NCBI GenBank assembly: GCA_000092065.1
Contig: CP000598.1
Reading direction: 5' to 3' (one strand)
Source of the DNA: Ostreococcus lucimarinus
Taxonomy: Eukaryota
DNA: 64,000 bases
The notes under the pieces are model-generated. The model searched no databases. It saw only the letters and a program-made list of their open reading frames with translations, and was not told the DNA's origin. Made by a program: the position numbers and the translations under genes. Shown here piece after piece: positions 876 through 23,688 of this stretch. Position 1 is the first letter of the stretch. Every line of letters begins with the position of its first letter.

Positions 876-1205
876 CGCGAATGAAATCGGCGCGGACGTG
901 ATTCGGATGCGGTGGCGTTACGTTCTGTTCCGATCCGCGTGCGCACGCACTTTTGTCACGTACTCACGCACATTTGTGTGGCATGTGATTACTCATGTGT
1001 GAAAAAAACGTTCCGAACCGTTCCGCACGGTTGTTCGAGGGTCGTCATCGGCGGAGAACGACGACAAAATTAAGGGGTATAAAGATTAGCGAATATGTAA
1101 ATGTAAGGAGTAACCATGGGCTCCAACGTTAATCGCCTCGAAATGCTTTCCGTTATCGATGACTTGCATGAAAAGTATCAACATTTACACCATAAATCGA
1201 AGCTC

Positions 1206-1362
1206 TAAACCCTAAACATAGTTTTCGTTTTTTTTGCTCAGGTTTCGCCAGGCACGTGTCAAAAATTGGCAAATTCTGAAACTCGTTTTTTGCTAGGGTT
1301 TAGCTTTAACGTCTCCGAACGCTCCGACGGGGAGGCGATGACGCCGCCGCCACTCGTCGACG
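1206..1362 (+). promoter_or_regulatory. Telo-box 5' module, copy A (upstream of the giant DUF285 gene)
   Basis: CCCTAAA repeats at 1206-1217. Core gtgtcaaaaa..ttctgaaactcg.tttttgctAGGGTTTAGc at 1256-1304. gccactcgtcgacg at 1349-1362. The same ordered blocks occur at 14937-15065, 18010-18176 and 19759-19946. Confidence 0.6.
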
Positions 1363-1838
1363 CCTCCGTCCGCGGTCGTTCGCGTCGACATAGTTCAAGT
1401 GGTACCCTTGGACGACGGGCCCACCCGTGCGCACCCACGGGTGGGTGAAGTGCGTTTCCGTGGCGCGCCGTCGCCGTTCGGTCCTTCGCGGGCGACCGTA
1501 GCGCAACCGGGCGATCTCCGTGCGGGCGGCGCGACGCGACGCCGGTGCACGCATCGCAAGGGGCACACGCCGGGGGCACGGCGCCATTCGCGGCGAACGG
1601 TACGCCACCACACACGTTCGCAGCGGCGGACGGCATGCGTGGGCGGGTTGGAGGCAACGTTGTATTGAAAATTGCGTACAGCACTGTTGGGCAGACCGGC
1701 TCGTTGAAGCAGCATACGGATCTACGAGCGAAAGCATTTTCTCCGTCGAATATCATAGGGAAACAGCATGATAGATCAGTTGCACGGTCGAATCACAGTG
1801 CTCGAGCATCCTTCAGTTATCATACGTTGAAGGTGAAA

Positions 1839-4800
1839 ATGATTTTAACACTCGTATCCATCGCTATATCCATGGGAAATACACTTGCGAGTGGTAGCAT
1901 AGCGCTCACCGACGCAACGTTTTCTACTGCGATCGCTAGTTGCCTCGAGGAGGCAGCGTCGGATGGCCTGTGTACTTCTTACGGCTTTGCAAGTGGGTTC
2001 GGAGCGATGCCTGATTGGGACACGGGCAATGTCACGAACATGGGTAGTGCATTTTCGTCTAAATACTACTTCAATGCATCCATCGGGAACTGGAACACGT
2101 CGCGAGTGACGTATATGGGTTCCATGTTTCAGTCTGCGTATTCGTTTAATCAGGACATCGGGAACTGGAACACGTCGCAGGTGACGAACATGTATTCCAT
2201 GTTTCAGTCTGCGAATTCGTTTAATCAGGACATCGGGAACTGGAACACGGCGCGAGTGACGTATATGGGTTCCATGTTTCAGTATGCATCTTCGTTTGAT
2301 CAGGACATCGGGGGCTGGAACACGTCGCAGGTGACGAACATGTATTCCATGTTTCAGTATGCGTCTTCGTTTGATCAGGATATCGGGAACTGGAACACGT
2401 CGCGAGTGACGTATATGTATTCCATGTTTCAGGGCGCATCTGCGTTTGATCAGGACATCGGGGGCTGGAACACGTCGCGAGTGACCAATATGGGTTCCAT
2501 GTTTCAGTATGCATCTTCGTTTGATCAGGACATCACAAACTGGAACACGTCGCGAGTGACCAATATGGGTTCCATGTTTCAGTATGCATCTTCGTTTGAT
2601 CAGGACATCACAAACTGGAACACGGCGCGAGTAACGTACATGACCAACATTTTCCAAAACGCGACGGCGTTTCAGGCGAAATATACATGTTCGACCGTTC
2701 AATCTGGACCCATCGCATCGTGTTCGCAGTGCGTTGCAAACTGTGCCGCTTGTAGTAACACTGCGTCGGGTGTTTGTAGTGTTTGCATGACTGGGTACAC
2801 ATTAGACGGAGGAATGTGTGCGGCACCCGCTGCGGCGCTCACCGACGCAACGTTTTCTACTGCGATCGCTAGTTGCCTCGAGGAGGCAGCGTCGGATGGC
2901 CTGTGTACTTCTTACGGCTTTGCAAGTGGGTTCGGAGCGATGCCTGATTGGGACACGGGCAATGTCACGAACATGGGTAGTGCATTTTCGTCTAAATACT
3001 ACTTCAATGCATCCATCGGGAACTGGAACACGTCGCGAGTGACGTATATGGGTTCCATGTTTCAGTCTGCGTATTCGTTTAATCAGGACATCGGGAACTG
3101 GAACACGTCGCAGGTGACGAACATGTATTCCATGTTTCAGTCTGCGAATTCGTTTAATCAGGACATCGGGAACTGGAACACGGCGCGAGTGACGTATATG
3201 GGTTCCATGTTTCAGTATGCATCTTCGTTTGATCAGGACATCGGGGGCTGGAACACGTCGCAGGTGACGAACATGTATTCCATGTTTCAGTATGCGTCTT
3301 CGTTTGATCAGGATATCGGGAACTGGAACACGTCGCGAGTGACGTATATGTATTCCATGTTTCAGGGCGCATCTGCGTTTGATCAGGACATCGGGGGCTG
3401 GAACACGTCGCGAGTGACCAATATGGGTTCCATGTTTCAGTATGCATCTTCGTTTGATCAGGACATCACAAACTGGAACACGTCGCGAGTGACCAATATG
3501 GGTTCCATGTTTCAGTATGCATCTTCGTTTGATCAGGACATCACAAACTGGAACACGGCGCGAGTAACGTACATGACCAACATTTTCCAAAACGCGACGG
3601 CGTTTCAGGCGAAATATACATGTTCGACCGTTCAATCTGGACCCATCGCATCGTGTCGATCGGGGTCACCATTTCAGAATTCGACCGAGTTGAAGCTTGC
3701 GGTCGACAGCTGTTTACTCGCGGATCCAACAGGAAATTGTGATTGCAGAAGTTCTCTGGTCGACTGCCGGGCGGCGAGCGGCGATTCAATATCGAAATGG
3801 GATACACGCTTCGTAACGAATATGAGCTCCTTGTTTGCAGGATCAGATCAATTTAACGCAGATTTAGGTGCTTGGAACACAAGTGCCGTTACTTCGATGT
3901 CGCACATGTTTCATGGAGCCGCTGCGTTCAACAAAGACATTAGTGGTACGTATAATGCGAATATCTTCGCGTGGGACGTGAGCGGCGTGACGGACATGAC
4001 TCGAATGTTCGAAGGCGCTAATAGTTTCGCTCAGGACATCAGCTCGTGGAACGTGGTGAACGTCGCGAGCATGGACAGTATGTTTTCGGGCGCAAACGCG
4101 TTCAACGCGCCCATCGGCAGTTGGAACACAGACGGCGTGACAAACATGTTTCAGATGTTCCACTCAGCACATGTGTTCGATCAACCAATCGGAAGCTGGA
4201 ACACGGAACGGGTGACGAGCATGCAGTGCATGTTCATGTATGCGCGTGAATTCAATCAGGATATCAGCTCCTGGAACACGGTCAACGTGGTAAATATGTG
4301 GGATATGTTTAATAGTGCGGATGCGTTCAACCAGAACATTGGGTTATGGAACACAGAGGAGGTGACGGATATGAGATACATGTTCTATAACGCGGGTGCG
4401 TTCAACCAGCCCATAGGGTCGTGGAACACCGCCAATGTCACGACCATGCGATCTATGTTTCAGGGCGCATCTGCGTTTAATCAGGACATCGGAAACTGGA
4501 ACACGACTTCTGTCACGGACATGTACAGCATGTTTGGTAGCGCGACGGCGTTCAATCAGAACATCACGGGATGGCACACGCCGAATACTGGTATTACTTG
4601 CGATTCATCGCAAACGGCGTGTGGTGATACAGGGTGTTTTGACATCGGTAATTGTGCTGCTGCGATGTTTTCCGGTGCGACAGCTTGGTTAGCGAGGTAT
4701 GCTCGCATGGATGGGAATGCGTCGAGCACCGATGGACCTCCGTCTCAGTGGGTCGGCCCGACACCATTTTTGAGTCGAGACGCTTTAGTCGCGGCGGTTG

Positions 4801-7800
4801 ATAATTGCTTGACCGAGGACGAGACGGGAAGTTGCGATTGCTCTGATTACGACGTCGATTGTGGCGCCGCCGTAAAGCTGCCGATCACGGAATGGGACGT
4901 GAGCCTCATCGTGGATATGAACGAGCTATTTAAGGCTCGAGCAGCTTTCAATCAACCGGTTGGTGTTTGGAACACTAGTAGCGTGACGGATATGAGCGGC
5001 ATGTTTGAGAGCGCATCCGCGTTTAACCAGCCCGTTGGTAACTGGAACACGGGTAGTGTGACGGACATGAGCGGCATGTTTGAGAGCGCATCCGCGTTTA
5101 ACCAGCCCATTGGTAACTGGGCCACGGGCAGTGTGGCGGATATGAGCGGGATGTTTGAGAGCGCATCTGAATTCAATCAGAATATTAGTAGCTGGTCAGT
5201 CGCTTCTGTGGTGAACATGCAATCCATGTTTTCCTCTGCTTCATCCTTCGAGCAAGACATCACTGGATGGATTTCAACTAGTGTCACGACGGACATGGCG
5301 ACGGACATGTTTCTCTCTGCGACAGCTTGGCTGCGAACATTCGCACGCACAGATGGCGAAGACACCCCCCATGGTCCACCATCCGATTGGGGCGAACCGT
5401 GTGGCAATGGGTGGTACGATGAGAAAGTTCAGGGGGAGAAGGAGGATGACTTTTGTGAGCCAAAAGTGAACGGGATTGAAGTGAAAGGATGTGCAGATGA
5501 CTGCAAAGTAAAAACGAACTGGAAGTGCGACAATGTCGACTTGCTACGCCCCGGTGATGACTTCGACAGCTACAATTGTACGTGCGACAACCCGGTGGGC
5601 ACGTATGCATCACCTAATCTTGATAATGATTGTGCTCGCACAGATTGCGTTTATGTCGAACGGTGTCTCGCTAACGGCCTAGGCTGTGCGCCCGGTGCCG
5701 GTGGAATGTGGGACGTGGGACGTGGAACGTGGGACGCGGTGAACGCATGCGGCAAGTGCTTGAGGGCCGCTGATATTGCCGAGCTCCCACTCAACGAACG
5801 AAGTAGGCACAACAAGGCTGGCTATTACAAGACTGGGCAGACGTGCACGGCTTGTCCTGCGACATCAGCCGCGGGACTTTTCGCTGCGGCTGCGGTTGTC
5901 GTCGTCCTCGCTTTTTGTGGTTTCAAAGCCTCTCAATTGATGGGCGCTCAAGCGACGAACAATTTGAAGAAAATTGTCGAGTCGCTGCAGTTCTTCTCTC
6001 TTTCGCTCAGTATGAGTATCAAGTGGCCTGGGCCCGTACTCAATCTCGGTAAATATTTGGAAGCTTTCACGTTCAGCATTGAGTTTCTACGACCCCAATG
6101 CGTCGCTGCGGGGCTGGATTGGCTCAATATATTTTTGTCCTCGGTGTTTGTCGTTCCCGCTCTCATCTTCATAATCATCGTCGTGAACAATAGACGGGCG
6201 AGGCACCGTTACAAAACAACGGTGCGCGCGATCGACAGTGAACGACACGAGGATGGCGAAACGGTCTACTGGATCGAGAAACCAGGGTTCCTGTGGGGTA
6301 CGCGGAGAGCTTACGAGTCCAAGGGCGGAGATAAGATTGTTCGTGAGTTGCAGCGCCAGTATCGGTTTCGAGCCGCGCTTCGATCTTTCGGCGTACTGTC
6401 ACTGACCATCCTGTACCTTCCCATCGTGCGTATGTGCCTTCAGTCATACGATTGCATAAAGATAGACGGCGTGGATGGGCTTCGATTGGAGCATGACATA
6501 GATATCCTCTGTGAAAGCGAAGGGCACGTGATCATCCAGGCCGCCGCCGCGGTGATGTTGGCCATTGTCGGTATCGGCATGCCAATTTACGTCGTTATGC
6601 AAGTTCGTAAGATCCGTTTGAGTGGTAAACTGGATGATCCGCAGACTATCGACTCGTATGGTCCGTTCTACGACGTCTACCGGCGCGAGGAGCTCACACA
6701 TGATCACAAATTGGAGATTGCGAGGATTCGACAAACCGCGGTCGAGTCGTCCTCATTTCGACGAGGCGAAGGCACGAGCGACGAACGTCCTTTCGATGCA
6801 GCAACTGATGATATTGCAGAAGAAATCGCAAATGAAGTCAGGGTCGACACGGAAGAAGATTCAAGCGACGTCGATCGTGTTGACGTCGAGGACGATAGTG
6901 GCACTCCACCACCTCAGAAAGTTTCATCCGGTCTCGGTAAGCTCGCTCGGGCGTTAACGATGACGAAGTCTGCTTTAGGCCGGACGACGTCAGCGAAAGC
7001 GCGCGAACGGGCACATCGAATGCACTGGAAGGACAGGTTCGCGCTTCACTACCTGGCCGTTGAACTAGTGCAGAAGAGTTGCGTCATTTTGACGACGTCT
7101 CCGATAGTGGCCGAAACCGCGGTGAGCGGTTGGGCTCTGGTTGTCGTACACTGGTTTACCGGCGCCTTCGTCTACGTGTGTCAGCCTTGGCGCATCATGA
7201 CGCTCGGCTTCGGCAAATACAAGGTGCGAAATTGCTTGAACAAAGTCGAGTCCTTGGCTGGATTTTTGCAGGGCGTGGGACCGTTCTTGGCAATGATCTT
7301 CCCTGTTCAGAGAAACGAGTTCGGTGAGGTGAAGCAAACTGTGACACTCTCAGCCATAACTGTCCTGCTGACCATCATAATCACCGGGCTGCTTTCTATT
7401 CGTATCATTGTTTTCGTCGGCGAACGCGTCGCCGTCAAACGAAAGAAGATGGATATCGACAAGGATCCCGAGAAATGCATGCAAAATGTTCACAAACAAC
7501 TGGTCAAGCTCGCAACCAACAGAGCGATTGTGAGCATGTTTGCTTTCAAGGCAGATTTCGACATTAAGCGCCGTAAAGCACGCGCGAGGCTGGAAGATAC
7601 TCGCCAAGCGATGTTATCGCGCATCGATATCTTGAAGTCACAACAGACCGACGAGGACCATTCCGATAAAATTACCGCGTTGTACGAAGTGGCGAATGAA
7701 ATGGCACACATCGTGAATACGATCGTACCCCAAGCACCGCCAACAGGTCCAAACGCAGAAGGGTGTATCGAATTGCTGGATGAACAACTGGCATCAATTC

Positions 7801-9368
7801 TCAAGGACGTCGACGTCCGAGCGCAGGCGAACGCGTTAGACGCTCCGAATTCTGCGGCGGTACATATCGTGATGAAGGTCCACGCGTTCGATACAATCAT
7901 ATGTCGACTTGACGAACATTTGCTCGAATTCGCGGCGGCAGAACGTGTGAGTGAGCTCGCCGAGCTGGGTCGAAGACACGCTGAATTACGACATACGCGA
8001 CGTTGTGTCGCGATAGGTTTCGGCGACGCAGAGCTTCGAGCTACTTTCGATGCGCTAAGATCGTGCATCGAGGCACTCCGCCATGCCGTTGAGAACGACG
8101 ACTTCGAAGCTGTATTCACAACTTTCAATGGTGGGAAGGAGATCATTGATTCTCACTTACGATGGTGTCGGGATCAATGTGAATTGTTCAAGAGCGCCGA
8201 GGACGAGCACCCCGATTTCCTCGAGGACGAGCCTCCACTGACGACCGAGTTTTTCAAGGCGACAGTCAAGGTGATACAATCCCATGAAAAGCAACTGTCT
8301 AAATTTAAATCGGAATGTATTCGTAACTGGCCCCCGCTTTTCAAGAACTTTGGCCGCGTCAAGTACATACAAGGCTTTGCTGAGCAACTTCAGAATCAAC
8401 TCCATCTCGATCTCAATGAAAGCACGCCGGAGGAGGCCAAGGCTGTTTTCGATCAGGTGTTGGCCTTCACAGATGGCTTCGCGCTTTGGTGCGGCGATTT
8501 AGTGGCACAGGTCGAAGGCTCAGATGTCTTCATCTTGTTTGAGCCAATCGCCCGCGCGATGGTGGAAAGCTTGAAAGCCATCAGAGCAGACGCTGAGTCG
8601 CAAAGTGCACTCGCGAGGCAAGCATTGAGTACGATAGATTATGTGGTGACGCAACGGGCGTTGGCCGCAACGACGCGGTCGGGCTTGCAGACAGCACTCG
8701 CGGATGGTACGTCTGCGCTTGAAGACCAGCTCGCCGCAGAAATTGCAGACATGGACGCTGCGAAGATTTCTCGAGAGACTACTTTCGAGACCGAAAAGAT
8801 GCGCACCGAGGAAGCTTTGAATACATTAGAGCAAGAGTTGGACGGTAGGCGAGCGGTTTTAGAGGACGACATTCGATCGCAACAGGACACTATCGCGCGG
8901 CTACAAAACTTGAAACGGGAAGAGGCCGCGGCATCGAGCTCTATAAACCCGTTGAAATGGGAGCGTTTCAGTCGAAGCACTGAGCTCGCCGAAGCTGTAA
9001 GTGCACTCCGTATGAGCAAACAAAACTTGAAGAATGAAGAGCTTGCAAATGAGAAGGCCCGCGGGGATGCGCGTAAGGCGGTTCATTCGTTGGAACGGGG
9101 CCTGAAAAAGGACCTGGTCGAATGTGACGTCCGAGCAAAGAAAATCCGAGACGATGTGGCAAAGGAGCTGAAGAAACAAACTATGGATGCTCAGAGGAAG
9201 ACACCCGAAGATGCTAAAGCCCATAAGGCTAGTCTGGCTTCCAGGCGCGCGGTGTTCCAGCAACAACGCGCCGCCGCTAAACTCATCGCGAGCGAAAGTA
9301 GAGAAGCTACGCGAATTCAAGCACAGCTTGCATACTACATGCGAAATTTAAAGGCGCGCGAATCGTGA
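1839..9368 (+). CDS. Giant surface-type protein: DUF285 (PF03382, BspA-type LRR) repeat ectodomain, Cys-rich stalk, multi-pass membrane region, long coiled-coil tail
   Basis: Uninterrupted ORF (track 1545..9368, non-ATG start). The in-frame ATG at 1839 precedes the signal-like peptide [19 protein letters not shown]. About 35 repeats of F..A..FNQDI..WNT..VT.M..MF fall in four blocks, each with a Cys cap (..AVDSCL..G.C..). Roughly six hydrophobic helices lie between 5860 and 7440, followed by an acidic linker and a heptad-rich tail. Confidence 0.85.
1902..3655 (+). repeat. Internal tandem duplication, period 933 bp (1902-2722 = 2835-3655)
   Basis: The two 821-bp arms read identically base for base wherever I compared them. 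Antisense ORFs at 1845..2702 and 2802..3635 have identical peptides. The arms are separated by a 112-bp Cys-rich linker ([25 protein letters not shown]). Confidence 0.9.
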
Positions 9369-9499: not shown

Positions 9500-9703
9500 G
9501 GCTCACAAATCAGGCAAGAGAAGACAGGTGCACGTGCAAACTCTCAGCGGAACGAGTTGGTCGTCTCGAAGATCTCGGTGTTTGGTGAGACCAAGCCGAC
9601 GCACAGGAGGAGCACTTCGATGCCTGGAGGTACAGAAGATGTAACTCATCTTAAGCGTACGACTATTCAGACCTTGGGGGTTCCGCTTAAGATTTCTTCG
9701 GAA
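9500..9703. repeat. Diverged 3'-flank module, paralogous to 21905-22140
   Basis: Alignable by eye at roughly three quarters identity: gacaggtgc..gcaaa..ggaagagcacttcg.tgcctg.gggtacagaagatgta..aagaccttgggg.ttc..gcttaagatttc. Confidence 0.7.
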
Positions 9704-10190
9704 TGGAATCTCTGAACGCAAGGCGTGGATGTACATTAAACCATGAACGAGGCGGGCCACGGTTCGATTTTTTGGATTACAAGTGTAGGTCTACTTTTAC
9801 GTTTCGTGGACTCTGCTTGAGTCGGCCGATGTCACCATGTCAGTCAGGTGCTTCGAGTGCACTAGAGACGTGACCGCCCATACACAGGACGTCGAGCTCG
9901 GCGTGCCTGATTTCACGACTCGGCGACCATGGTTTGAAACCGAAATGACCATCGGCTTCAGGCCCAGGCGCGGCCGCAATGCTACTTTAAACTTAATATT
10001 TTTTTTTTGAAAAAAGAGTAGTAAGAGTAATAAAAATAAACTTTTTTTTGTTTGAGTTGGGGCACCCCAACATGATAAAACCGCACATCGCGGCGAGCCG
10101 CGCGACGACGATCACTTCGGTCACATTTCCAGTCAGTGATTCTCGTCGTGTGATTCATCGTGTTTGACGTCGACGTTGATGTACCACATG
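9704..10190. mobile_element. 487-bp insertion flanked by 16-bp direct repeats (small non-autonomous element, type unknown)
   Basis: taagatttcttcggaa (9688-9703) and taagatctcttcagaa (10191-10206) flank it. The paralogous site at 22125-22140 has one copy and no insert. The first ~315 bp recur at 16396-16703. There is an internal T-run/A-run at 10008-10016. Confidence 0.6.
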
Positions 10191-10227
10191 TAAGATCTCT
10201 TCAGAACCAATCGTGTGAGTGAAGTGT

Positions 10228-10725
10228 TCAGGCCAAGTCGCGTAACTCATCTAGCGTAAATTGATACTTGTCGAGACTGCGCTTTGAAGGCAGCGTGCCA
10301 CGCGCTCGAGCATTCTTGAGGCACGTCTTACGCAGTATTCTTTTCGCGTGCTGCTTGTAATAATTGAGTTGTCTGTAGTTACCATCGCCGCCGTCACGCT
10401 TCGGCGTATATTGGGCTCTGCTGTAGGCTTGACTCTCGTCCACGTTCTCGTGACACGCGTGTTTCTGGCTGCGTCCAGCAGCTCGGGAGTTGAATAAGCC
10501 GTCGCGCTTCTCTCTCATGTATGCACTTTTACGTTGATGGAGCTCTCCAGCTGGAATGTCCTTTTCGAGAACTCTCACGTCCGCGTCGCCAAACGTGAAG
10601 ATTGGATGTCGTGCGTATTTATGCGAGGCAAGGCGCGCTCTGAGCGAACCTGTCGTCGATCCGATGTACGTTTTGTCACATTTCGCATTATCGCTAAACA
10701 TTTCGTACACGCACCCCGTAGGCAT
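10228..10725 (-). CDS. GIY-YIG family nuclease-like protein (copy 1)
   Basis: ATG verified. N-terminus MPTGCVYEMFSDNAKCDKTYIGSTTGSLRARLASHK fits the GIY-(10-11 aa)-YIG motif plus the conserved Arg, with downstream E and N residues (AYMREK, FNSR). Basic C-terminal tail. Confidence 0.6.
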   Translation of the reverse strand: MPTGCVYEMFSDNAKCDKTYIGSTTGSLRARLASHKYARHPIFTFGDADVRVLEKDIPAGELHQRKSAYMREKRDGLFNSRAAGRSQKHACHENVDESQAYSRAQYTPKRDGGDGNYRQLNYYKQHAKRILRKTCLKNARARGTLPSKRSLDKYQFTLDELRDLA

Positions 10726-10894
10726 TTGTCCTGGTTACCTATCCATCCCTAAGAAAATATTGTTGCCTCCTCCTGCGGTTTGCAGTCACATTCGAGAGAC
10801 CATAGGTACTCGTGTCGCTGCGTGGGGTGCAAGGTCCGGGGTGTAGATATCGAACCGCCTGATTTCACACCTGGACGTTCGTGATCCGACGAGA

Positions 10895-11085
10895 CCTGAC
10901 GAAATGACGAACTTGTTTTGTCGTCCCCAAATTCGTCAGCCCGTCGTTCGGTCACACTTTGTGTGTACCAATGATGAAAATGACGAAATGTTAAAATATT
11001 TTAATGTTTATTTTTATTTTAGATCTATGACAAGCAACAGTGTAGACCTTTATGAAAACAGTTCGTCATTCGTCATTTCGTCAGG
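10895..11085. repeat. Inverted repeat around an AT-rich spacer (also at 22837-23027)
   Basis: cctgacgaaatgacgaac (10895-10912) is the reverse complement of gttcgtcat(tcgtcat)ttcgtcagg (11061-11085). The arms resemble an internal piece of the 9704-10020 element (cctgatttcac, caaaccatggtc). Confidence 0.7.
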
Positions 11086-11150
11086 ATCCAAACCATGGTC
11101 TTTTCGGTGTCTTGTTGAGTCTTCATATTGCAAATGTACGAATCACAAAA

Positions 11151-11669
11151 TTAGTATGAACACCAGACGACCGCCGGCGCGAGCTCCGTCTCCCCCGTGT
11201 ACCCATTGTTCTTCAGCCACTCGAAGCACCCGTCGCGGTCAATTTCCCAATAGACGCCCTTCTCGTCCCTACCTTGCCTCAGGTGGTCCTCTTCCATTGG
11301 GATCCTGTGGCCCTTTTCCTTCTTGAAGAAGTCCTTGAGCTTATTGCCGACCTTCGTCGCGCTATCTTGTCCACGCGCAGCCGCTGGCAACCACGTCTGG
11401 TATTCGATGAAGATGTCACTGTTGCGGATTTTATTTCCAACCCACTTCTCAGGGAATTCAACAGTGACGCAATGCTCAAACCATCGAGTGAACTTGGGCA
11501 TGCAGCCACGCTTCATTTCCGAATACGCGTCGGTCGTAGGTCTCGTGCGCTCCACATGATAACCGGTACGGAGAAGTTTATATTTATTAATTAAAGACTC
11601 GCGCGTGTTGGCGCTAAATGATTTTATTGCTGCCGAGAGACTCAAGTTTGGCCGTCGTTTGAGTCGCAT
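11151..11669 (-). CDS. Hypothetical protein (copy 1); weak resemblance to the C-terminal region of D5/P4-type primase-helicases
   Basis: The track ORF 11151..11726 starts at TTG; the first ATG is at 11669 (MRLKRRPNLSL..). The segment FTRWFEHCV..IFIEYQTWL..KVGNKLKDFFKK..GVYWEIDRDGCFEWLKNNGY is the basis for the tentative similarity. Function is unverified. Confidence 0.45.
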   Translation of the reverse strand: MRLKRRPNLSLSAAIKSFSANTRESLINKYKLLRTGYHVERTRPTTDAYSEMKRGCMPKFTRWFEHCVTVEFPEKWVGNKIRNSDIFIEYQTWLPAAARGQDSATKVGNKLKDFFKKEKGHRIPMEEDHLRQGRDEKGVYWEIDRDGCFEWLKNNGYTGETELAPAVVWCSY

Positions 11670-11746
11670 CGATGGGTCGCGCCCGCCGATATAACGCCGG
11701 CGTTTCGGACACGATCTTGAAAACAAGCACTGGTTGACTTGATTGA

Positions 11747-14272
11747 TTAGGAAACCTTATCCGTGCCTTTTACGCTGAGCCCGGTCATGGACGGCTTCGT
11801 CGGCATGGTGAACGCGGTGTAGTCCGCCGCCGTGGGCACCGTGATGCTCGTGTCGTACGACATCCCGGAGCACGCCGACGCATCGGCGGGAGCAAGCATT
11901 TCGACACCACTTTCGAGTTTCAAGACGTACCGGTCGCCAGTCGATGGTTGTTTGAACGTGGTGCCATCGGGGATCAGGACATCCGGACGGCGATGGTAAC
12001 CATTGTTGTCGTCGCACTCCTCGTTGCCATACTGGTCGACCTCGGGCGCCGCGCGCGAACCAGTCATCGGATTGAAGCAAATGAACGGCGCGTCGCCCAA
12101 CCAACCGCCTTCGTAACGCACGTTGAGATTCACCCCGGAGTAGTCGGTACCGGATGGAGAGCGCAGCAACACGGCGTCCGTGGGTATCTTGCCTTGAAGC
12201 TGGAGAGGCGCATCCATGAACTTCTTTGACGCGGAGTCCGAAGGATCTTCGAGCCACGCCATGCCCTCCCAATTGCTTGAGCTCCACTCGTAGTGCACAT
12301 CCAATTTGTTGGGTTCCTCGCAAACGTCGGTAGTGGCGGTGCAACTCAAAGTGTCGAGGTTCGCAGGTGTAGCTTCGAAGAGAACCATATGAACTTCTCC
12401 CGAGTCAAAGAATGAGTTGGTTGGGTCCATTACGACTTCAGCGCCGAGGGTGCCGGAAACGTCTTCCTTCAACGAGCCGGTATCTTTGTCGAAGACGTAC
12501 TTTTTATAAGTGCTTCGAGCGTCGTTGTATCCGTTCGGCGAGCCGTAGAACTGGCTGTCGTGACTGCTCGCACTCGATAGCTTCGTCTGGTCGATACACC
12601 GCTCGCCGCACGTGAGTGCGAGGTGGCTGCTGAGCGACCCAGGGGGGACGGTTTGCGCGTCAGACACTTTGAAGTGCGTCAGGTTAAGCAAACTCGCAGA
12701 GCCTCGGCCGAAGATGCTTCCCCAGCAGCGTATGATTTGGTTGTCAATGTCAGCCATCGTGAGCGCACGCGGAGTCGTGATTGAGTTCGTGTTCAGCGAT
12801 CCACCGTTCCAAGTTCGCTTCGACGACAACACGAGTGCGTTCGCGTCGGAGTCATACCTGAACTTGACCTCAACTTCTGCAGCGTTAGTGTCATCCCAGA
12901 ACCAGCCTGTGATCGTCGCCCCTTGGTAGTCGCTTGCGCTTCGCACCGTCGCCGTGAACTTGTACAACACCCCGCGTGAGACTTTGAGCCTCTTGTTCAC
13001 GTTCAGTATCGGATCATCCCAATCGACAATTTCCTCTACTACGTTCCCGTCGGTGAACGCGGTTTGAGCGATAGTCTTCTCGGCGGTACTGAGCGCGGTG
13101 TCGGAAATGTAGTCGTAATCGGAAATGTAGAGATTGCCCGGATAGTGCAGATCAGCATTATACGTCTTGCCGTCGCTGCCTGTAGCCTGAAGATGCACGT
13201 AGCTTTGAAGGTTCACCTTCGCCCCGTTGCTGTCGTACGCGCCGTAGCGCTCACCGAAGAACGATCTGTTCTCGAGTTCATCGCAGAATGACTGCCCGTA
13301 CGCCTTCGTCTTGACGAGCGTAGCGGTAGTCACCAATTGACCCGCTTGTGTCGAACCATTATCAAAGTCGATGGTCTGGAAAGAGGCCTTCGTGATGTCG
13401 TTTTCTGCGCGCGATTTAGCACCCGCGGTGAATGAATTGCTGCCTCGTGTCACCTCTTCCCACCACGTGACCCCGGTCGCCGTGCAATCCGAATCCGCGT
13501 CGGTGGTTTCGCACTCGCGACGAACCACACCTTTGATGCGTTGGGACGCGGTCGAGCCAGTCGGCGATTGGTACGTAAAGGTAAAGTTTTTCACCAAGAT
13601 TTTGTCAGACTTGATGGCGACGTCATCGCGCTTGACGATCATTTCCGTGTCGATGTTCGGCATTTCTGGGGTATCGCTGAGGGCTACCCAGACGTTCGTC
13701 TTGAAATCACGGGTATCGCTCGCGTCGTCGATGTCTGGGCCCGTGGCGTTGACGACCCAACGGTACGTAACCTTACCCTTGATTCGGTCGCCGTCGCTGT
13801 TGTCACAGTGGAAAGGATCGATCTCAGCGATGTATGGGCCAGTGTTCAGGTTCGCCGTCCAGTTCACCGAGGCGACGTAGCAAAGAACCATGTTTGGTAT
13901 CTGGAAAATTTCGGTACTTACAGCGTCGACGAACGTCTCCGCCGGCGGCGCCGTGGCGTAGTCGGACGTCGAAGAGAACGAAGACACTTCGAGAGGCGTC
14001 ACCTCGACGAGCGAACGACCATCGATTCGAGACGAACCAGAAGACGTCGTCGAAACACCCTCTGACGGGATCATGGTGACTTTACGCGGCGTCAACGCCG
14101 CCTTGAGCGCGTTCGTCTTCGCCGCGCCCGACAGCCCGCTGACGGTGGTCGGGGTCGGGGCCGGGGCCGGGGTCGCGTCGTCATCCCTGAGCCCGATGCC
14201 GAGGCCGGTGCCAAGGGCGACCACCACGGCGGCGACACCAACGATCGCGATCGCAACGCCACGTCTCACCAT
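11747..14272 (-). CDS. 841-aa membrane-anchored protein with a large Cys-containing extracellular-type domain, unknown family (copy 1)
   Basis: ATG verified. N-terminal anchor MVRRGVAIAIVGVAAVVVALGTGLGIGL, a PAPAPTPTT linker, then a long uninterrupted ORF with a non-repetitive, protein-like sequence. Confidence 0.75.
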   Translation of the reverse strand: MVRRGVAIAIVGVAAVVVALGTGLGIGLRDDDATPAPAPTPTTVSGLSGAAKTNALKAALTPRKVTMIPSEGVSTTSSGSSRIDGRSLVEVTPLEVSSFSSTSDYATAPPAETFVDAVSTEIFQIPNMVLCYVASVNWTANLNTGPYIAEIDPFHCDNSDGDRIKGKVTYRWVVNATGPDIDDASDTRDFKTNVWVALSDTPEMPNIDTEMIVKRDDVAIKSDKILVKNFTFTYQSPTGSTASQRIKGVVRRECETTDADSDCTATGVTWWEEVTRGSNSFTAGAKSRAENDITKASFQTIDFDNGSTQAGQLVTTATLVKTKAYGQSFCDELENRSFFGERYGAYDSNGAKVNLQSYVHLQATGSDGKTYNADLHYPGNLYISDYDYISDTALSTAEKTIAQTAFTDGNVVEEIVDWDDPILNVNKRLKVSRGVLYKFTATVRSASDYQGATITGWFWDDTNAAEVEVKFRYDSDANALVLSSKRTWNGGSLNTNSITTPRALTMADIDNQIIRCWGSIFGRGSASLLNLTHFKVSDAQTVPPGSLSSHLALTCGERCIDQTKLSSASSHDSQFYGSPNGYNDARSTYKKYVFDKDTGSLKEDVSGTLGAEVVMDPTNSFFDSGEVHMVLFEATPANLDTLSCTATTDVCEEPNKLDVHYEWSSSNWEGMAWLEDPSDSASKKFMDAPLQLQGKIPTDAVLLRSPSGTDYSGVNLNVRYEGGWLGDAPFICFNPMTGSRAAPEVDQYGNEECDDNNGYHRRPDVLIPDGTTFKQPSTGDRYVLKLESGVEMLAPADASACSGMSYDTSITVPTAADYTAFTMPTKPSMTGLSVKGTDKVS

Positions 14273-14409
14273 CGTCGCGCGTTGAAATGCGGCGACGACA
14301 AGTGGCGACGGTGACGCGATCTGCCCGCACGCAATTCAATTCCTTCGGGTCACCTTATCTTTTGGAGCCCCCGGAAACGCGACTGTTTACCAATACGATG
14401 GTTCCCGGG

Positions 14410-14685
14410 TATTGATTACTGGGCCTGTTGGCGCCCCGCGGGTGTGTGTGTGCCAGCCCGTAGGGTTTAAGGTTTAGGATCCGAAATATGGAGCCTCGCT
14501 ATTAAGCCGGGGATCCTCCGCGGGCACGCGCCCCCGCGGGCGTGTGTGTTTTCGCGGTCGGTCGGACGGGAAGCCTGTTGGCGCCCCACGGGTTTGTGTG
14601 TCGGTCCTTAGCGTTTGGGGTTTAGTATCGGACATACGGAGCCTCACTATTTAGCGGTATGACCACATATATTAATTGATTTATA
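14410..14685. repeat. Degenerate telomere-like / subtelomere-like block (1.5 units); related block at 17466-17640
   Basis: Shared unit: ggggatcctccgc..ccgcgggcgtgtg..ttcgcggtcggtcggacg..ccgttggcgccccgcgggtttgtgtg..agggtttag.ggttaggatcggacatatggagcctcactatttagc. Confidence 0.8.
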
Positions 14686-14759
14686 CCATTCATCCCGCGC
14701 ATAAAATCGGGTAGATTACTGTACAGTAATCTACCCGACTTTATGCGCGGGATGAATGG
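14686..14759. repeat. 74-bp near-perfect palindrome (36 of 37 arm positions pair)
   Basis: ccattcatcccgcgcataaaatcgggtagattactgta|tacagtaatctacccgactttatgcgcgggatgaatgg; centre ctgtacag. Weaker arm similarity extends about 25 bp on each side. Confidence 0.9.
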
Positions 14760-14936
14760 CATAAATCCCATAGTATATGGGGACCGGACCGGCGGGACGT
14801 GTGATTTTTTACCGTAGGGGTCATGATTGGTCGTTCGGGGGTACTCGTATGAAATAATGAAACACCATACTTTTATTTACATTTTGGTTTATTAAAAAAA
14901 CCCGTACGTGCATTTACTACAGAATTGACCACTTTT

Positions 14937-15065
14937 CGCGCGGGTTTCACCAGAAAGCTTCAAAAATCGTGCCTTTTCTAAAACTCAATTTTCGCTAGGG
15001 TTTAGCGCCCCCGGTTTTCCGAGGATGCGGGCAGATCTCGCCGTCGGCGCCACTCGTCGACGACC
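14937..15065 (+). promoter_or_regulatory. Telo-box 5' module, copy B
   Basis: AGGGTTTAG at 14997-15005, gccactcgtcgacg at 15049-15062, upstream ATG at 15025, main ATG at 15066 in the context gaccATGG. Confidence 0.6.
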
Positions 15066-16181
15066 ATGGCCTCCCCGTCGCTCGATGCCGTGCGTTGGAG
15101 CGAATACCGGGCGCTCATGCAAGCGTGGGAAGCGTTTAACCCACACAGGGAGCTCCTGCGTCGGTTTTTACAGAAGCAATCGCACACGGAGCAGTGCCCA
15201 CCCGGCGTCCCGTACGTACCAGATCTGCCGGAGCCGGAGTACTTCGCCGTGAAGAGACGAATCGAGGCCGGGGAAACCGTTCCATGTCCTGGATTCTTAC
15301 GCGAACGCGACAACCGGCGCAATCAATGCCGCTGCGGGGCTCCACTCAGAGTTGATGACACTGGCAATATCTCCTGCACTTCCAAAATTCCCCGTCATGA
15401 GAACTATGGTCCTGTACCTCGTTGCTGTTGCTGGGCCGAAGAAGAGCACGCTCGTAACCAACGACATGACATGCCGCCGTATATTTTAAGGCCGCCACCC
15501 ATAGTGTCCCCCCCTCAAGTACCACCGTCGTCTCAAGTGCTCTTGAGCTTTTTGGAGGGGGTCAGGCCAAGCATGAACGCCAACTACCTGCGATGCGTTC
15601 AAGACATAGACGAAGAGCTCGCTCGTCTGAATGAGCAGCTTGCGGACAACAGCATTTCAACGACGAGGCGTGAAGCGATTCAACAGCATATAGTGAGCGA
15701 ACGCTCCAAACTTGAGGCCAAAGACACACAGTTACAAGATTTTTTTAACACGACGACCGCACTGGCAGAATCCGTGCACACGTTCGAGCACAGAGTGGCA
15801 GAGAAATACCAGAAAGCTGTGGATGCATACATTAAAGCGCAACTGGATGAAGTGGTCGTACCTCCGGATAGTAGAGGGAATCCAAAGTTTAAGGACTCAG
15901 TCGATGGCATCGACAGAGAGTTGGCCAAGTTAGAATCAGAAAATGGAGGCATCTCCAACGACAGCGCTCGCGCTCGCGTCGCCTCCAAACGTAAGAGCGT
16001 GGAAGAGTGTGAATCAGAGCACAAGCGCCTCAAAACCACTTCGGTTGAGTACAACTTGTCTATTTTGAAAGGGAGTTTGGAAAAAGACAAATCTATGTCT
16101 GCTGAAGACAAAAGACGCTGGGAATGCGTCATAAACGCCGTCGGGTTGTTACGAGCAAACGATGCACCAAGAACGCCGTAG
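15066..16181 (+). CDS. Coiled-coil protein of unknown function, paralogue of 18177..19220
   Basis: ATG verified. Shared block NYLRCVQDIDEELARLNEQLADNSISTTRREAIQQHIVSERSKLEAKDTQL versus NYLRTVERIDKNIQVLEAQLQDENISETRRSVIPQHIEDTRAKLKEQDNSL. Confidence 0.7.
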   Translation: MASPSLDAVRWSEYRALMQAWEAFNPHRELLRRFLQKQSHTEQCPPGVPYVPDLPEPEYFAVKRRIEAGETVPCPGFLRERDNRRNQCRCGAPLRVDDTGNISCTSKIPRHENYGPVPRCCCWAEEEHARNQRHDMPPYILRPPPIVSPPQVPPSSQVLLSFLEGVRPSMNANYLRCVQDIDEELARLNEQLADNSISTTRREAIQQHIVSERSKLEAKDTQLQDFFNTTTALAESVHTFEHRVAEKYQKAVDAYIKAQLDEVVVPPDSRGNPKFKDSVDGIDRELAKLESENGGISNDSARARVASKRKSVEECESEHKRLKTTSVEYNLSILKGSLEKDKSMSAEDKRRWECVINAVGLLRANDAPRTP

Positions 16182-16186
16182 CAACA

Positions 16187-16245
16187 GTATGGGCAAACAG
16201 TTAGGCGTTCTCCATGGCCTCCATTCGCGCGACCAGAGCGTTGAC
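16187..16245. repeat. 58-bp junction module, second copy at 20768-20825
   Basis: gtatgggcaaacagttag...ttctcca..gcctccattcgcgcgaccagagcgttga. It lies 5 nt after the TAG of 15066..16181 here, but inside the ORF at 20768. Confidence 0.8.
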
Positions 16246-16395
16246 GCGCTCTTCGAGTTCGTCGATGCGGCGTTGTTTAGCGTCGTTCGCGCTCTCTACA
16301 TCGGCGCGACATAGAATAACGATAATCTATATCTGCTATATCTGCTTAATATTCTGCTTAAGATTTCGGCACCCTCGCTTAAGATCTCTTCAGAA

Positions 16396-16703
16396 TGGAA
16401 TCTCTGAATGCAAGGCGTGGATGTACATTAAACCATGAACGGACCACGGTTCGATTTTTTTTATTACAAGTGTAGGTCTACTTTTACGTTTGGTGGACTC
16501 CGCTTGAGTCGGCCGATGTCACCGTGTCAGGTGTTCAGAGTGCACTAGAGACGTGACCGCCGATACACAGGGCGTCGAGCTCGGCGTGCCTGATTTCACG
16601 ACTCGGCGACCATGATTTGAAACCGAAATGACCATCGGCTTCAGGCCCAGGCGCGGCCGCAATGCTACTTTAAACTTAATATTTTTTTTTTGAAAAAAGA
16701 GTA
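16396..16703. mobile_element. Second copy of the 9704-10020 element core
   Basis: It starts immediately after cttaagatctcttcagaa (16378-16395), the same sequence as the flanking repeat at 9688-9703. It is collinear up to the T-run/A-run gaaaaaagagta, and no matching right-hand repeat is seen. Confidence 0.6.
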
Positions 16704-16756
16704 CTATAGTACTTTTGGTGTTTAAACGTGTTCGTGATATGATTGATAGTCCGTGA

Positions 16757-17465: not shown

Positions 17466-17640
17466 GTGAGGCCCGGAGATCCGGGGATCCTCCGCAGCCC
17501 CGCGGGCGTGTGCCTGGCGTGTGCCCTTCGCGGTCGGTCGGACGAGGGGCCCGTTGGCGCCCCGCGGGTTTGTGTGCCAGCCCCAGGGTTTAGGGGTTAG
17601 GATCGGACATATGGAACCTCACTAATTAGCCGCATGACCT
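17466..17640. repeat. Degenerate telomere-like block, homologous to 14515-14685
   Basis: See 14410-14685. Contains cagccccagggtttaggggttaggatcggacatatggaacctcactaattagc. Confidence 0.8.
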
Positions 17641-17838
17641 CATACATTAAGTTATTTATATCTAGTCATCGCGCGAAATGGCGTGGGTAAATTACCGTAC
17701 TAGGGTTTCCGTAAATAAAATACGTACCGAAAATAATGAATTAATTTACACGGGCGTGCCACGACGTCGTCGCACGCGCTCGTGAAAATTTGGTTGACGG
17801 CTTGGATTCGAGATTTTGGGGAGGTAAAATTCGGCCAA

Positions 17839-17880
17839 ATCCCGCGCATATATTACTGTACAGTAATCAAAGCGCGGGAT
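17839..17880. repeat. 42-bp palindrome related to 14686-14759
   Basis: atcccgcgcatatattactgta|cagtaatcaaagcgcgggat; same ctgtacag centre and same atcccgcgc/gcgcgggat arm ends. Confidence 0.85.
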
Positions 17881-18009
17881 GTGGCCAAAGTCTTTGGGTC
17901 ACAGCCCCTCACTTTGGGGGCTGCAGTGACGGGATGTGGGAATTTTACCGTATGGGTCGTGACTCGTCGTTGGGGGTACTACTATGAAATCCCATAATTC
18001 TATTGTACA

Positions 18010-18176
18010 TAGGGTTTAGAAATTAGGGTTTAGACGTCAAAAATCGCTCGGGTTCCATCAGAAACGTGTCAAAAACGGGCCTTTTCTGAAACTCGATTTT
18101 TGCTAGGGTTTAGCGCCCCCGGTTTTCCGAGGATGCGGGCAGAGCTCGCCGTCGGAGCCACTCGTCGCCGCACACG
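18010..18176 (+). promoter_or_regulatory. Telo-box 5' module, copy C
   Basis: tagggtttagaaattagggtttagac at 18010-18035, core with AGGGTTTAG at 18105-18113, and a 15-codon uORF (18133-18180) whose TGA overlaps the main ATG (ATGA). Confidence 0.6.
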
Positions 18177-19220
18177 ATGACCGATTCAGTCGCGCACGCC
18201 TCACCGACATGGAGAACGTACTCATTAAACCCGTCGCTGCAACCGGACTGGATGAACGGCACGGCGGAGGTAGAGGCGGTCAAAACAGCGGAGGATGATC
18301 TCGAGCGCTCGTACAAGAACAAGCCGTTCTTCAAGGACGCAAGCTACGAGGCATTCGCCAGACAACGAGACGAGTATGACAAACCGACGCCCGACGGCCT
18401 CGAGGAGTTCAAGCGCATCTTACGGTCGAATTATCTTCGCACCGTAGAGCGCATCGATAAAAATATCCAAGTTCTGGAAGCCCAGCTACAAGACGAGAAT
18501 ATCTCTGAAACGCGACGGTCGGTTATCCCGCAGCACATCGAGGACACTCGTGCGAAATTAAAAGAGCAAGACAATTCATTGAACGCGCTGTGCGCCGATG
18601 TGGATGCGGTTATCGCAGATTTGAAAGGCTTGCCCGATAAAATTGCCGACATTAAAGAGCGCGCCTCTGAACAACTTCAGCGACACAAAAGAAAAAGGAC
18701 TAATGCATCTTTGGAACGCAACCTCGAGGAGTTGAGCGATGCGTTGCGCAGCTACGAGGCGAAAAAAGAACAGGAGAGGCTCACCCTTTGTGAACACCAA
18801 ATTCGCCAACAGAATCTGCCATTGTCCCAGTATGTTCGCTACTCAGGGGGAGGAGTTATCGACGTTGTTCATCCTGTGGGTGTCATCGGCTGCGATGGTA
18901 GTAACCTCAGCGTTGATGGTCGTGGTGGTCGTGGTGGTCGTGGTGGTCGTGGTGGTCGTGGTGATCGTGTTCTTTCGGTTAATCGTCAACGTTACTTTGA
19001 AGTGCCACAATGGCGGCCTGAATGGGGACCTGAGAAGCAATTTTGTGCGTGCAAGAGCTTCCAAGAATGGTACAAAGTCGACGCCGGAGACCTTCTTTAC
19101 AGCGCGCTTCGTGGCGTAGAGGGCGCGCTAAAGGCGCTCAGTGGTTCGGGAGATGACACCTCTTCGCTTCGACGGCGCTTGGGCGATGCCAATTTGGACG
19201 AGGCAAGCACAGGGAGTTAA
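18177..19220 (+). CDS. Coiled-coil protein with an RGG repeat, paralogue of 15066..16181
   Basis: ATG verified. Shares the NYLR..ID...L..QL.D..IS.TRR block. DGRGGRGGRGGRGGRGDR is encoded by a GGTCGT-type microsatellite. Confidence 0.7.
   Translation: MTDSVAHASPTWRTYSLNPSLQPDWMNGTAEVEAVKTAEDDLERSYKNKPFFKDASYEAFARQRDEYDKPTPDGLEEFKRILRSNYLRTVERIDKNIQVLEAQLQDENISETRRSVIPQHIEDTRAKLKEQDNSLNALCADVDAVIADLKGLPDKIADIKERASEQLQRHKRKRTNASLERNLEELSDALRSYEAKKEQERLTLCEHQIRQQNLPLSQYVRYSGGGVIDVVHPVGVIGCDGSNLSVDGRGGRGGRGGRGGRGDRVLSVNRQRYFEVPQWRPEWGPEKQFCACKSFQEWYKVDAGDLLYSALRGVEGALKALSGSGDDTSSLRRRLGDANLDEASTGS
18918..18968 (+). repeat. In-frame hexanucleotide microsatellite (ggtcgt/ggtggt) encoding the RGG box
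   Basis: ggtcgtggtggtcgtggtggtcgtggtggtcgtggtggtcgtggtgatcgt read directly. Confidence 0.9.
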
Positions 19221-19740: not shown

Positions 19741-19758
19741 GACGCATTACATTAAATC

Positions 19759-19946
19759 TAGGGTTTAGAAATTAGGGTTTAGACATCAAAAATCGCCGAG
19801 GTTCCATCAGAAAGTTGTCAAAAACGTGGCTTTTCTAAAACTCGATTTTTACTAGGGTTTAGCGACCTCCGGTTTTTCGGCGGAGGAATTGCGTGCGGGC
19901 AGATCTCGTCGTTGTCGCCACTCGTCGACGCGGCGATGCTCTCAAC
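19759..19946 (+). promoter_or_regulatory. Telo-box 5' module, copy D
   Basis: tagggtttagaaattagggtttagac at 19759-19784, core AGGGTTTAG at 19853-19861, gccactcgtcgacg at 19917-19930. The upstream ATG of copies B and C is GTG here. Confidence 0.6.
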
Positions 19947-20767: not shown

Positions 20768-20817
20768 GTATGGGCAAACAGTTAGTTATTCTCCACAGCC
20801 TCCATTCGCGCGACCAG
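20768..20817 (+). other. Candidate 50-nt GT-AG intron joining the ARM ORF to the downstream ORF
   Basis: GTATGG donor at 20768 and CAG acceptor at 20815-20817. Removing it restores the frame (..RRIVDA|ALKDSGRSDDAQINALY..). Hypothesis only. Confidence 0.3.
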
Positions 20818-21904: not shown

Positions 21905-22124
21905 CAAATCAGCGTCAGGCGAAGGAAGACAGGTGCGTCTGCAAATTCCAAATTCTCGGCAGAACAAGTTCGTCGACTGGAAGAGCTCGGCCGGTTTGGA
22001 GACAAACCCGCCATATTGGAAGAGCACTTCGCTGCCTGAGGGTACAGAAGATGTAGCTAATCAGAAGCGTGCGACCGTTAAGACCTTGGGGATTCGACTC
22101 GCTTAAGATTTCGGCACCCTCGCT
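21905..22124. repeat. 3'-flank module, copy 2 (see 9500-9703)
   Basis: Collinear with 9500-9703 and carries the uninterrupted target sequence cttaagatttctccagaa at its right end. Confidence 0.7.
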
Positions 22125-22161
22125 TAAGATTTCTCCAGAACGAATCGTGTGAGTGAAGTGG

Positions 22162-23611: not shown

Positions 23612-23688
23612 CGATGGGTCGCGCCCGCCGATATAACGCCGGCGTTTCGGACACGATCTTGAAAACAAGCACTGGTTGACTTGATTGA

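Follow-up and report, generated by a model that had tools for sequence, protein, structure and literature searches.

Several described systems place a conserved sequence before genes or on their transcripts. Plant telo-boxes are enriched at genes of the translation apparatus. The ups types of Plasmodium var genes, and the upstream conserved sequence (UCS) with its junction element in Pneumocystis MSG genes, are conserved 5' flanks in hypervariable or subtelomeric compartments shaped by a host-parasite arms race; these systems serve one downstream gene family, for which mutually exclusive expression, or recombination that brings genes into an expression site, is documented. Spliced-leader trans-splicing in kinetoplastids and dinoflagellates puts a common 5' sequence on many mRNAs. 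Arabidopsis telo-boxes have been scored from -60 to +140 of the transcription start (PMC2576244), and Arabidopsis telomere-repeat-binding (TRB) proteins recruit PRC2 to telo-boxes (PMC8788455). In the green alga Ostreococcus lucimarinus, 36 of the 42 chromosome ends carry shared Type-I (up to 411 nucleotides, nt) or Type-II (up to 844 nt) sequences directly after the telomere (Chaux-Jukic et al. 2021, PMC8287924), and the Chlamydomonas Spacer is an H3K4me3-marked, active promoter whose transcripts run toward the centromere and look non-coding (PMC8287924). Here we describe a 64-kb stretch of O. lucimarinus DNA (the window) in which a non-coding block of 130-190 nt around a telomere-like motif, the telo-box cassette, stands upstream of protein-coding genes. 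The window matches chromosome 18 of O. lucimarinus CCE9901, of which the products of genes B and E are proteins; this is a small outlier chromosome of 149 kb with 53% GC and 78 open reading frames (ORFs) (PMC3491373).

From its sequence context, we lean toward reading the cassette as a shared promoter and 5' leader centred on the telo-box, which would have been spread and homogenised by recombination among outlier-chromosome, possibly subtelomeric, genes. Its identification as a promoter-proximal region and 5' leader draws on its position and orientation, its boundary at start codons, its non-coding character, a constrained core, and the mosaic, homogenised make-up of its copies.

Full-length copies follow the consensus TAGGGTTTAGAAATTAGGGTTTAGAC - ATCAAAAATCGCCGAGGTTCCAYTRYAAACGTGTCAAAAACGGGCCTTTTCTR - AAACTCGATTTTTGCTAGGGTTTAGCG - CTCCGGTTTTCCGACGGAGGAATTGCGTGCGGGCAGATCGCGTCGTCGGCGCCACTYGTCG - (5-25 nt) - ATG, which divides into three sub-modules. 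The first is optional and consists of a distal telo-box pair (TAGGGTTTAG, 14 nt apart) with TCAAAAA(T/C)CG boxes. The second is the nearly invariant core TTTTCTRAAACTCGATTTTTGCTAGGGTTTAGCG, and the third is a GC-rich leader (..GCGGGCAGATC.CG.CGTCG.CGCCACTCGTCG..) that extends up to the start codon and is also found alone. The non-coding character is evident on direct reading, as the conserved telo-box contains stop codons in two frames. The core motif itself is a discrete 10-mer rather than a decayed telomere array. Over 17 copies that the search pattern described below had not chosen, the best-conserved stretch is GAAACTCGATTTTTGCTAGGGTTTAGCG (80-99%, versus about 40-70% in the flanks), and the telo-box is intact in 13 of them. 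The core appears to be the constrained part of the cassette, the segment in which selection would be concentrated. Throughout the collected sequences, cassettes account for 183 of the 204 telo-box 8-mers; the 21 others are spread over the remaining 458 kb, near the chance level, and mostly within an associated upstream repeat. The telo-box is thus not a general promoter motif of the neighbouring genes. Around the core, the downstream segment falls into 10 block classes and the upstream segment into 30, the latter including tandem ACACGTGTCAAAAACGTGG repeats, the 3' end fragment of another gene and, in locus L053, (CCCTAAA)3 abutting the core. GGGCC beside the core, considered as a Site II or TCP-type partner motif, differs between copies when compared by eye.

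The window contains four copies with a telo-box, A to D, and two leader-only copies, E and F, each named after the gene that follows it (Table 1). A profile hidden Markov model (HMM), built from 18 full-length metagenomic copies and searched against the window, matches copies A (1236-1363), B (14936-15062), C (17995-18173) and D (19745-19932) with E-values of 7.5e-17 to 5.3e-59, and detects no further degenerate copies in the window at E below 1e-3 besides the six. An earlier sequence-only reading had described copies A to D as carrying the same ordered blocks, and their positions and their blocks are both borne out by alignment and by these matches. It was also correct that C and D begin with TAGGGTTTAGAAATTAGGGTTTAGAC and that copy A carries its repeats in the opposite orientation (CTAAACCCTAAAC at 1205-1216). 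All nine occurrences of TAGGGTTTAG in the window, where 0.01 would be expected, fall within the four copies, and AAACCCTA occurs 11 times against an expectation of 0.7. When the window is compared with itself, the similarity among B, C and D ends at 15062, 18170 and 19930, a few bases from the start codons. The spacing first proposed between telo-box and ATG holds, at 60 nt (B), 63 nt (C), 84 nt (D) and 535 nt (A, ATG at 1839). The leader-only arrangement of copy E recurs in ten metagenome loci (L098-L107), and the first 1.2 kb of the window match none of the collected metagenome loci.

The relation to gene starts extends beyond the window. A 26-nt core pattern, AAACTCNNTTTTNNCTAGGGTTTAGC, was searched in marine metagenome and viral contig collections and matched 90 stretches in the marine metagenome contigs. 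With the gene-B loci added, there are 104 core instances in 95 sequences (83 unique), and the profile HMM yields 155 matches among 108 collected sequences, making the cassette a dispersed repeat. For 45 of the 72 unique copies with enough downstream sequence (62.5%), the first ATG of an ORF of at least 100 amino acids (aa) lies 15-135 nt past the telo-box. The same test succeeds at 9.3% of all positions in these sequences (binomial p about 1e-28) and in 7 of 36 cases on the opposite strand upstream of the cassette. In most copies the telo-box is on the sense strand, at a modal distance of 54-107 nt before the ATG. Furthermore, about 50-95 loci align to the gene-B region before the ATG of gene B, and exactly at this codon the count falls to 9. 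Many contigs start or stop inside the cassette, which looks like assembly breaks at a dispersed repeat; no poly(A) tails were seen at contig ends.

The coding sequences behind these copies form about 30 ORF families without detectable mutual similarity, among them DUF285, ARM, ankyrin, coiled-coil, LHC-like and rhomboid proteins, a 2136-aa tectonin/F5-8C protein, as well as numerous orphans. N-terminal signal or anchor segments are present in 10 of 30 cassette-gene families versus 7 of 68 neighbouring ORFs (Fisher p = 0.009, by a crude hydropathy test), an enrichment that fits the surface-variation theme of outlier chromosomes. In the window, too, the downstream proteins are as first described: a DUF285 giant, two coiled-coil paralogues (34% identity across 89 aa) and an ARM-repeat protein. 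Genes D and A share no relation with B and C, and the same is true of E and F. The proposal that a 5' cassette has been joined to different coding bodies therefore stands, since the block is a discrete non-coding unit and similarity ceases a few bases from the ATG. Its description as a property of a local gene family does not, given that metagenome copies precede some 30 ORF families, some beside housekeeping genes on high-GC contigs.

Within the cassette, different segments suggest different relationships. Over the 65 nt from the telo-box on, B and C are 97% identical to each other and 66-67% identical to D. Over the 60 nt upstream of the telo-box, C and D are the most alike (85%), and only these two have the telo-box doublet. 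The incongruent upstream and downstream groupings point to exchange with a breakpoint at or near the telo-box. Overall, the cassettes of B and C are 89% identical despite the low identity of their proteins, whose coding sequences are not alignable as DNA. Metagenomic orthologues of gene B give a similar picture. One with 90% aa identity (L108) has a full cassette of a different upstream type, and two with 76-78% aa identity (L110 and L111) keep TTAGGGTTTAGCG and the leader (81% identity), the DNA upstream of the telo-box being unrelated. In L109, the cassette and the first codons of gene B are lost. Gene B is found behind three different upstream junctions, namely in the window, in L001 and in L002; across contigs, three or four distinct upstream halves precede it. 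Orthologous gene-B leaders drift about as fast as the coding sequence. The paralogue cassettes are more alike than the orthologue leaders, as recent homogenisation or transfer within one genome predicts, and it is from such comparisons that we infer recombination.

Gene B has further features of its own. Its first 75 nt (15066-15140) are 95-96% identical in L096, L097, L110 and L111, compared with 67-73% for the next 300 nt and 56-81% for the leader; the coding 5' end seems to be under nucleotide-level constraint or to lie within the exchanged tract. In other populations, gene B or a homologue occurs amid housekeeping-type genes, in L001 (1641-2871; TatD, bestrophin) and L096 (9657-11083; PPR, Na/H antiporter, aspartyl protease), a placement that would result from translocation linking outlier with standard chromosomes, or else from a chimeric assembly at the repeat. 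A 58-nt segment is 91% identical between 16187-16244, directly after the gene B stop, and 20768-20825, at the 3' end of the gene D ORF. Its minus strand codes for the last residues of a coiled-coil peptide (..NALVARMEAMENA*), and the segment is joined directly to the upstream side of the cassette in several metagenome copies.

In functional terms, transcription would start in or near the core, and the telomere-repeat motif would be bound by a telomere-repeat-binding Myb protein of the TRB or TRFL type. Both kinds of telobox Myb protein, TRFL and Smh/TRB, have genes in O. lucimarinus (PMC4700174). Binding could place the genes under common control, either activating or of the Polycomb-type silencing kind, and ectopic recombination or gene conversion could keep the copies alike and plug new coding bodies behind them. 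The best explanation at present is that the cassette serves a changeable gene set on the outlier chromosome, and that related populations carry it beside core-like genes.

Several points weigh against a shared promoter and leader. It is from position alone that we infer this function, and the motif could be present for a telomere-related reason rather than for transcription. No ORF of at least 100 aa starts within 15-135 nt in 27 of the 72 copies, and some of the 30 or so families are probably spurious ORFs of GC-rich DNA. The metagenome set was chosen by the core pattern and includes the same loci in different population variants; its counts are therefore not independent. Genes E and F have the leader without any telo-box. 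Furthermore, two intact-looking orthologues of gene B have the element in decayed or reduced form: in L096 (79% aa identity) the telo-box has decayed to CTAGGGCTCAGC, and in L097 (74%) just the last 25 nt of the leader are left. The cassette is thus not indispensable for gene B. Finally, coarse clustering was searched for all four combinations of upstream and downstream blocks and no case was found, which leaves reciprocal recombination unproven.

Of the alternatives, a telomeric origin deserves the fullest treatment, and we regard it as possible, if on the doubtful side. The cassette would then be, or be part of, the species-wide Type-I/Type-II subtelomeric sequence, and the outlier copies would be onetime chromosome ends, now internal, that breakage, telomere healing and fusion have left behind. 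The telomere-like motifs would be remnants of repair, or else seeds for telomere addition, and any promoter activity would be that of a Chlamydomonas-like 'spacer'. The published account of the chromosome ends includes 5' truncations, junctions with the telomere 'in various phases' and, in Chlamydomonas, the Spacer promoter directed toward the centromere (PMC8287924). Many metagenome copies are likewise 5'-truncated, and in copy A, C-strand telomere repeats (CTAAACCCTAAAC) precede the 5'-truncated cassette by about 20 nt. In L053, (CCCTAAA)3 directly abuts the core in the order telomere, cassette, gene, and the roughly 30 downstream families are similar in number to the 36 chromosome ends. Several copies are located at the ends of high-GC contigs with housekeeping genes (GCV_T, RecA, an LSD1-like oxidase, PEX1). 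Sizes are compatible without being diagnostic: the left end of the palindrome upstream of copy B is 403 nt from the ATG, and the repeated unit upstream of B and C measures about 650-700 nt. In a sister species, outlier chromosomes lose large terminal parts yet regain telomeres (PMC13390643).

The details of the motif fit this origin less well. C-strand telomere repeats lie upstream in only 2-3 of 80 unique copies, against a discrete G-strand doublet in 25 of 80; they adjoin a truncated copy only in copy A and L053. No collected contig ends in a telomere array and no core telo-box continues into telomere repeats; perfect telomere repeats are limited to L053 (three) and L080 (two) among the collected sequences. 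The orientation of the motif tracks the gene in more than 100 copies, with both orientations present on a single contig (L086), as a promoter predicts and a healing seed does not. The four window copies are 1.7-13 kb apart and internal to the chromosome. We note that the subtelomeric origin and the promoter reading overlap: a subtelomeric element may also have been copied into the outlier chromosome, with the cassette as its gene-proximal portion.

It is improbable that the cassette represents one terminus of a non-autonomous transposable element with a promoter, such as a solo long terminal repeat, a miniature inverted-repeat transposable element or a gene-capturing element. It does behave as a dispersed repeat that breaks metagenome assemblies (155 HMM matches); single genes stand between direct repeats (B-C-D in the window; also L003, L004 and L075); and 11 of 65 copies have, 236-270 nt upstream of the core, a palindromic element. 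However, there is no constant 5' boundary (30 upstream classes), no terminal inverted repeat and no target-site duplication, and the cassette's own ends yielded no inverted repeat. On the 3' side, the boundary falls at the start codons of host-like genes that are unrelated to one another. Transposon domains are lacking from the genes between direct copies, and none were detected in the genes between or after cassette copies, in the window or in the metagenome loci. The viral contig collection gave no match. A transposon end unrelated to gene starts had been named in advance as an outcome that would undo the proposal; the cassette's placement and orientation with respect to ORF starts are far from random. 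A conventional transposon end was rejected on the variable termini, the lack of target-site duplications and transposition genes and the start codon as 3' boundary. A viral origin was also rejected, as three different cassette patterns found no match in the viral contig collection.

There is very little room for the cassette as a functionless, neutral leftover of the local segmental duplication of one gene family. Recent duplications do abound (for example 10191-14406 versus 22125-26353, 98.8% identity) and B and C are paralogous, but B and C have no relation to genes A, D and E/F, about 30 families are found elsewhere, the B and C cassettes are 89-97% identical though the coding DNA cannot be aligned, and the core is selectively conserved, so that this explanation is already contradicted by the data. 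Equally slight is the chance of a structured RNA (a regulatory structure in the 5' untranslated region, a small RNA gene or a spliced leader): in some leader variants short inverted repeats are seen (CTCCGGTTTTCCGACGGAG, for example), but that type is absent from the B/C variant, five leaders fold no better than dinucleotide shuffles (z of -1.3 to +0.6), no copy has an Rfam match (E-value mode, 1-27000; the palindrome gives sub-threshold hits only), and the cassette is encoded in cis at each gene, which speaks against a spliced leader.

Table 1. Cassette copies, associated sequences and genes in the window
Feature	Position	Strand	Description
Copy A	1205-1363	+	C-strand telomere-like 13-mer at 1205-1216, then 5'-truncated cassette at 1236-1363; telo-box 1294-1303
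Copy B	14936-15065	+	Core and leader, without upstream telo-box doublet; telo-box 14996-15005; ATG 15066
Copy C	17995-18176	+	Full length; telo-box doublet 18010-18033; core telo-box 18104-18113; ATG 18177
Copy D	19745-19946	+	Full length; telo-box doublet 19759-19782; core telo-box 19853-19862; ATG 19947
Partial copy E	14273-14348 (HMM match 14291-14348)	-	GC-rich leader only (gaattgcgtgcgggcagatcgcg..gccacttgtcg), without telo-box; abuts ATG at 14272
Partial copy F	26221-26296 (HMM match 26239-26296)	-	Leader only, before the 843-aa paralogue; inside the 4.2-kb duplication
Long GC-rich leader of copy A	1364-1838	+	1279-1706 aligns with metagenome locus L073 at 79%
Repeated unit upstream of copy B	14421-14935	+	Common to 17481-17994 upstream of copy C and to 10-28 metagenome loci
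Gene A	1839-9368	+	Giant DUF285 (PARCEL) repeat protein; PF03382, 12 stretches; signal-peptide-like start
Gene B	15066-16181	+	XP_001422295 of O. lucimarinus CCE9901; 371 aa, coiled-coil, without Pfam family
Gene C	18177-19220	+	Distant paralogue of gene B; 347 aa
Gene D	19947-20825	+	ARM-repeat protein; signal-peptide-like N-terminus, 44-aa tandem repeats
Gene E	11747-14272	-	XP_001422333; 841 aa, N-terminal hydrophobic segment, without Pfam family
Gene F	23689-26220	-	Paralogue of gene E; 843 aa

The long gap between copy A and its gene is explained by comparison with L073. There, a single uninterrupted ORF runs from 22 nt past the telo-box, via a GC-rich stretch, into a signal-anchor and DUF285 repeats; relative to L073, copy A has a 5-nt indel that breaks the reading frame. 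The alignment suggests that the DUF285 subfamily has a longer common unit, comprising the cassette and a leader of about 430 nt, which would be either a long 5' untranslated region or a decayed N-terminal extension. XP_001422294, the O. lucimarinus DUF285/PARCEL protein listed in PMC2996958, is presumably the product of gene A, as its accession adjoins that of gene B. Gene A also contains an internal duplication of about 790 nt that is 100% identical (1902-2690 versus 2835-3623), and extended runs of 75-nt (25-aa) repeats at 1941-5192.

Additional repeats are found on the upstream side of the cassettes. The similarity between the regions upstream of B and C spans about 500-550 nt beyond the cassettes. 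A second dispersed repeat on the minus strand, the X unit (14421-14509, 14573-14655 and 17547-17632), has internal telomere-like repeats (..GGATCCTAAACCYTAAACCCTAYGGGCTGGCACACACACCCGCGGGGCGCCAAC...). One X unit lies about 190 nt before the ATG of the 841-aa gene and is kept there in L098-L107. The palindrome at 14663-14782 is 120 nt long, near-perfect and without a spacer, its 60-nt arms being 88% complementary around the centre TTACTGTACAGTAA; it is seen again at 17830-17889 and 45704-45751, and may be a foldback element, a relic of breakage and fusion, or an element of another nature. In metagenome copies the palindrome core is the element 236-270 nt upstream of the cassette core (11 of 65), and at about 14700 Rfam returns only miRNA-like matches below threshold.

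Protein accession order hints that the window forms the leftmost part of the chromosome 18 record; a telomere array was sought at the window start and none is present there. The other window genes include FkbM methyltransferases, glycosyltransferases and nucleotide-sugar enzymes, consistent with an outlier chromosome. The 4.2-kb duplication cited above holds three minus-strand ORFs, including the 841/843-aa paralogues, together with the leader-only copies. Blocks are also shared between 9684-10023 and 16376-16706 (92.6%) and between 9510-9696 and 21915-22112 (75%). In gene D, 132-nt (44-aa) ARM-like tandem repeats at 20053-20844 are 91-95% mutually identical, the mark of a very recent expansion. 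The interval 26000-37000 is a block of GC 0.57-0.65, compared with about 50% elsewhere in the window, and holds a BCCT betaine/choline transporter (29263-31488); it resembles a translocated standard-chromosome segment, of the kind seen in the outlier chromosomes of sister species. Finally, repeats of 85-98% identity with no relation to the cassette are present at 55862-56076/61243-61464, 57820-58187/61458-61825, 46205-46380 and 799-875/28348-28426.

The sequence-only reading could tie the portable leader to no described system. This is right for the cassette itself, as neither a telo-box cassette nor promoter motifs of the outlier chromosome are described in the literature searched, and papers on outlier chromosomes make no mention of telomere motifs either; it overlooks possible kin in the shared subtelomeric sequences of PMC8287924, the only related statement that we found. 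The outlier chromosomes of O. tauri and O. mediterraneus show block-wise transcriptional switching and large rearrangements (PMC5082852, PMC13390643), and no cis element that explains either is described in the literature searched. In Mamiellales, rapid and reversible resistance against the most abundant giant viruses of the sea is linked with the small outlier chromosome, and the cassette is of interest to research on these chromosomes and on virus resistance. It offers a testable handle on co-regulation (TRB/PRC2), on rearrangement (breakpoints and new telomeres) and on gene recruitment in a very compact eukaryotic genome, and would provide a ready-made promoter for Ostreococcus genetics. 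Were it to be the subtelomeric sequence described in 2021, it would still add that gene starts adjoin this sequence, that its telo-box core is under constraint and that copies of it have reached internal positions on the outlier chromosome. A more speculative proposal, which we consider rather unlikely, makes the cassette a switchable control unit of a hypervariable repertoire of mostly surface proteins. It would combine TRB-type on/off control, with or without Polycomb, with a tract of homology for gene swap, duplication and loss by terminal truncation, and possibly a seed for telomere healing. This would be an algal counterpart of the expression cassettes used in antigenic variation, underlying rapid resistance to prasinoviruses.

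Comparison with the known systems places the cassette among several of them. With the plant telo-box (AAACCCTAA) it shares the same Arabidopsis-type telomere-repeat motif and a location near gene starts, the cassette motif being AAACCCTA(A/G), or about 1.3 repeat units; its usual distance of 54-107 nt before the ATG is compatible with the -60 to +140 range scored in Arabidopsis. The plant element is an isolated short motif in unrelated promoters, whereas here it forms the centre of a 130-190-nt block that is near-identical between unrelated genes. Moreover, the doublet is optional, the motif is TAGGGTTTAG on the sense strand, the genes are mostly orphans or encode surface-type or repeat proteins, and their neighbours lack the motif. 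By their published description, the shared subtelomeric sequences of green algae (PMC8287924) are species-specific, lie at most chromosome ends, and have telomere-like motifs and 5' truncations with telomere junctions; the cassette copies in the window are internal to the outlier chromosome, sit directly on protein-coding ATGs and are mosaic. The var ups and MSG UCS elements also belong to a hypervariable compartment with many surface proteins and a conserved 5' flank homogenised by recombination, as the O. lucimarinus cassettes would be; they differ from the cassette, behind which about 30 unrelated ORF families are found. Unlike the leader in trans-splicing, the cassette stands in cis upstream of each gene, and no features of a spliced-leader RNA gene were seen. 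Generally, the cassette belongs near telo-box promoters on the one hand and shared subtelomeric or variant-gene upstream sequences on the other.

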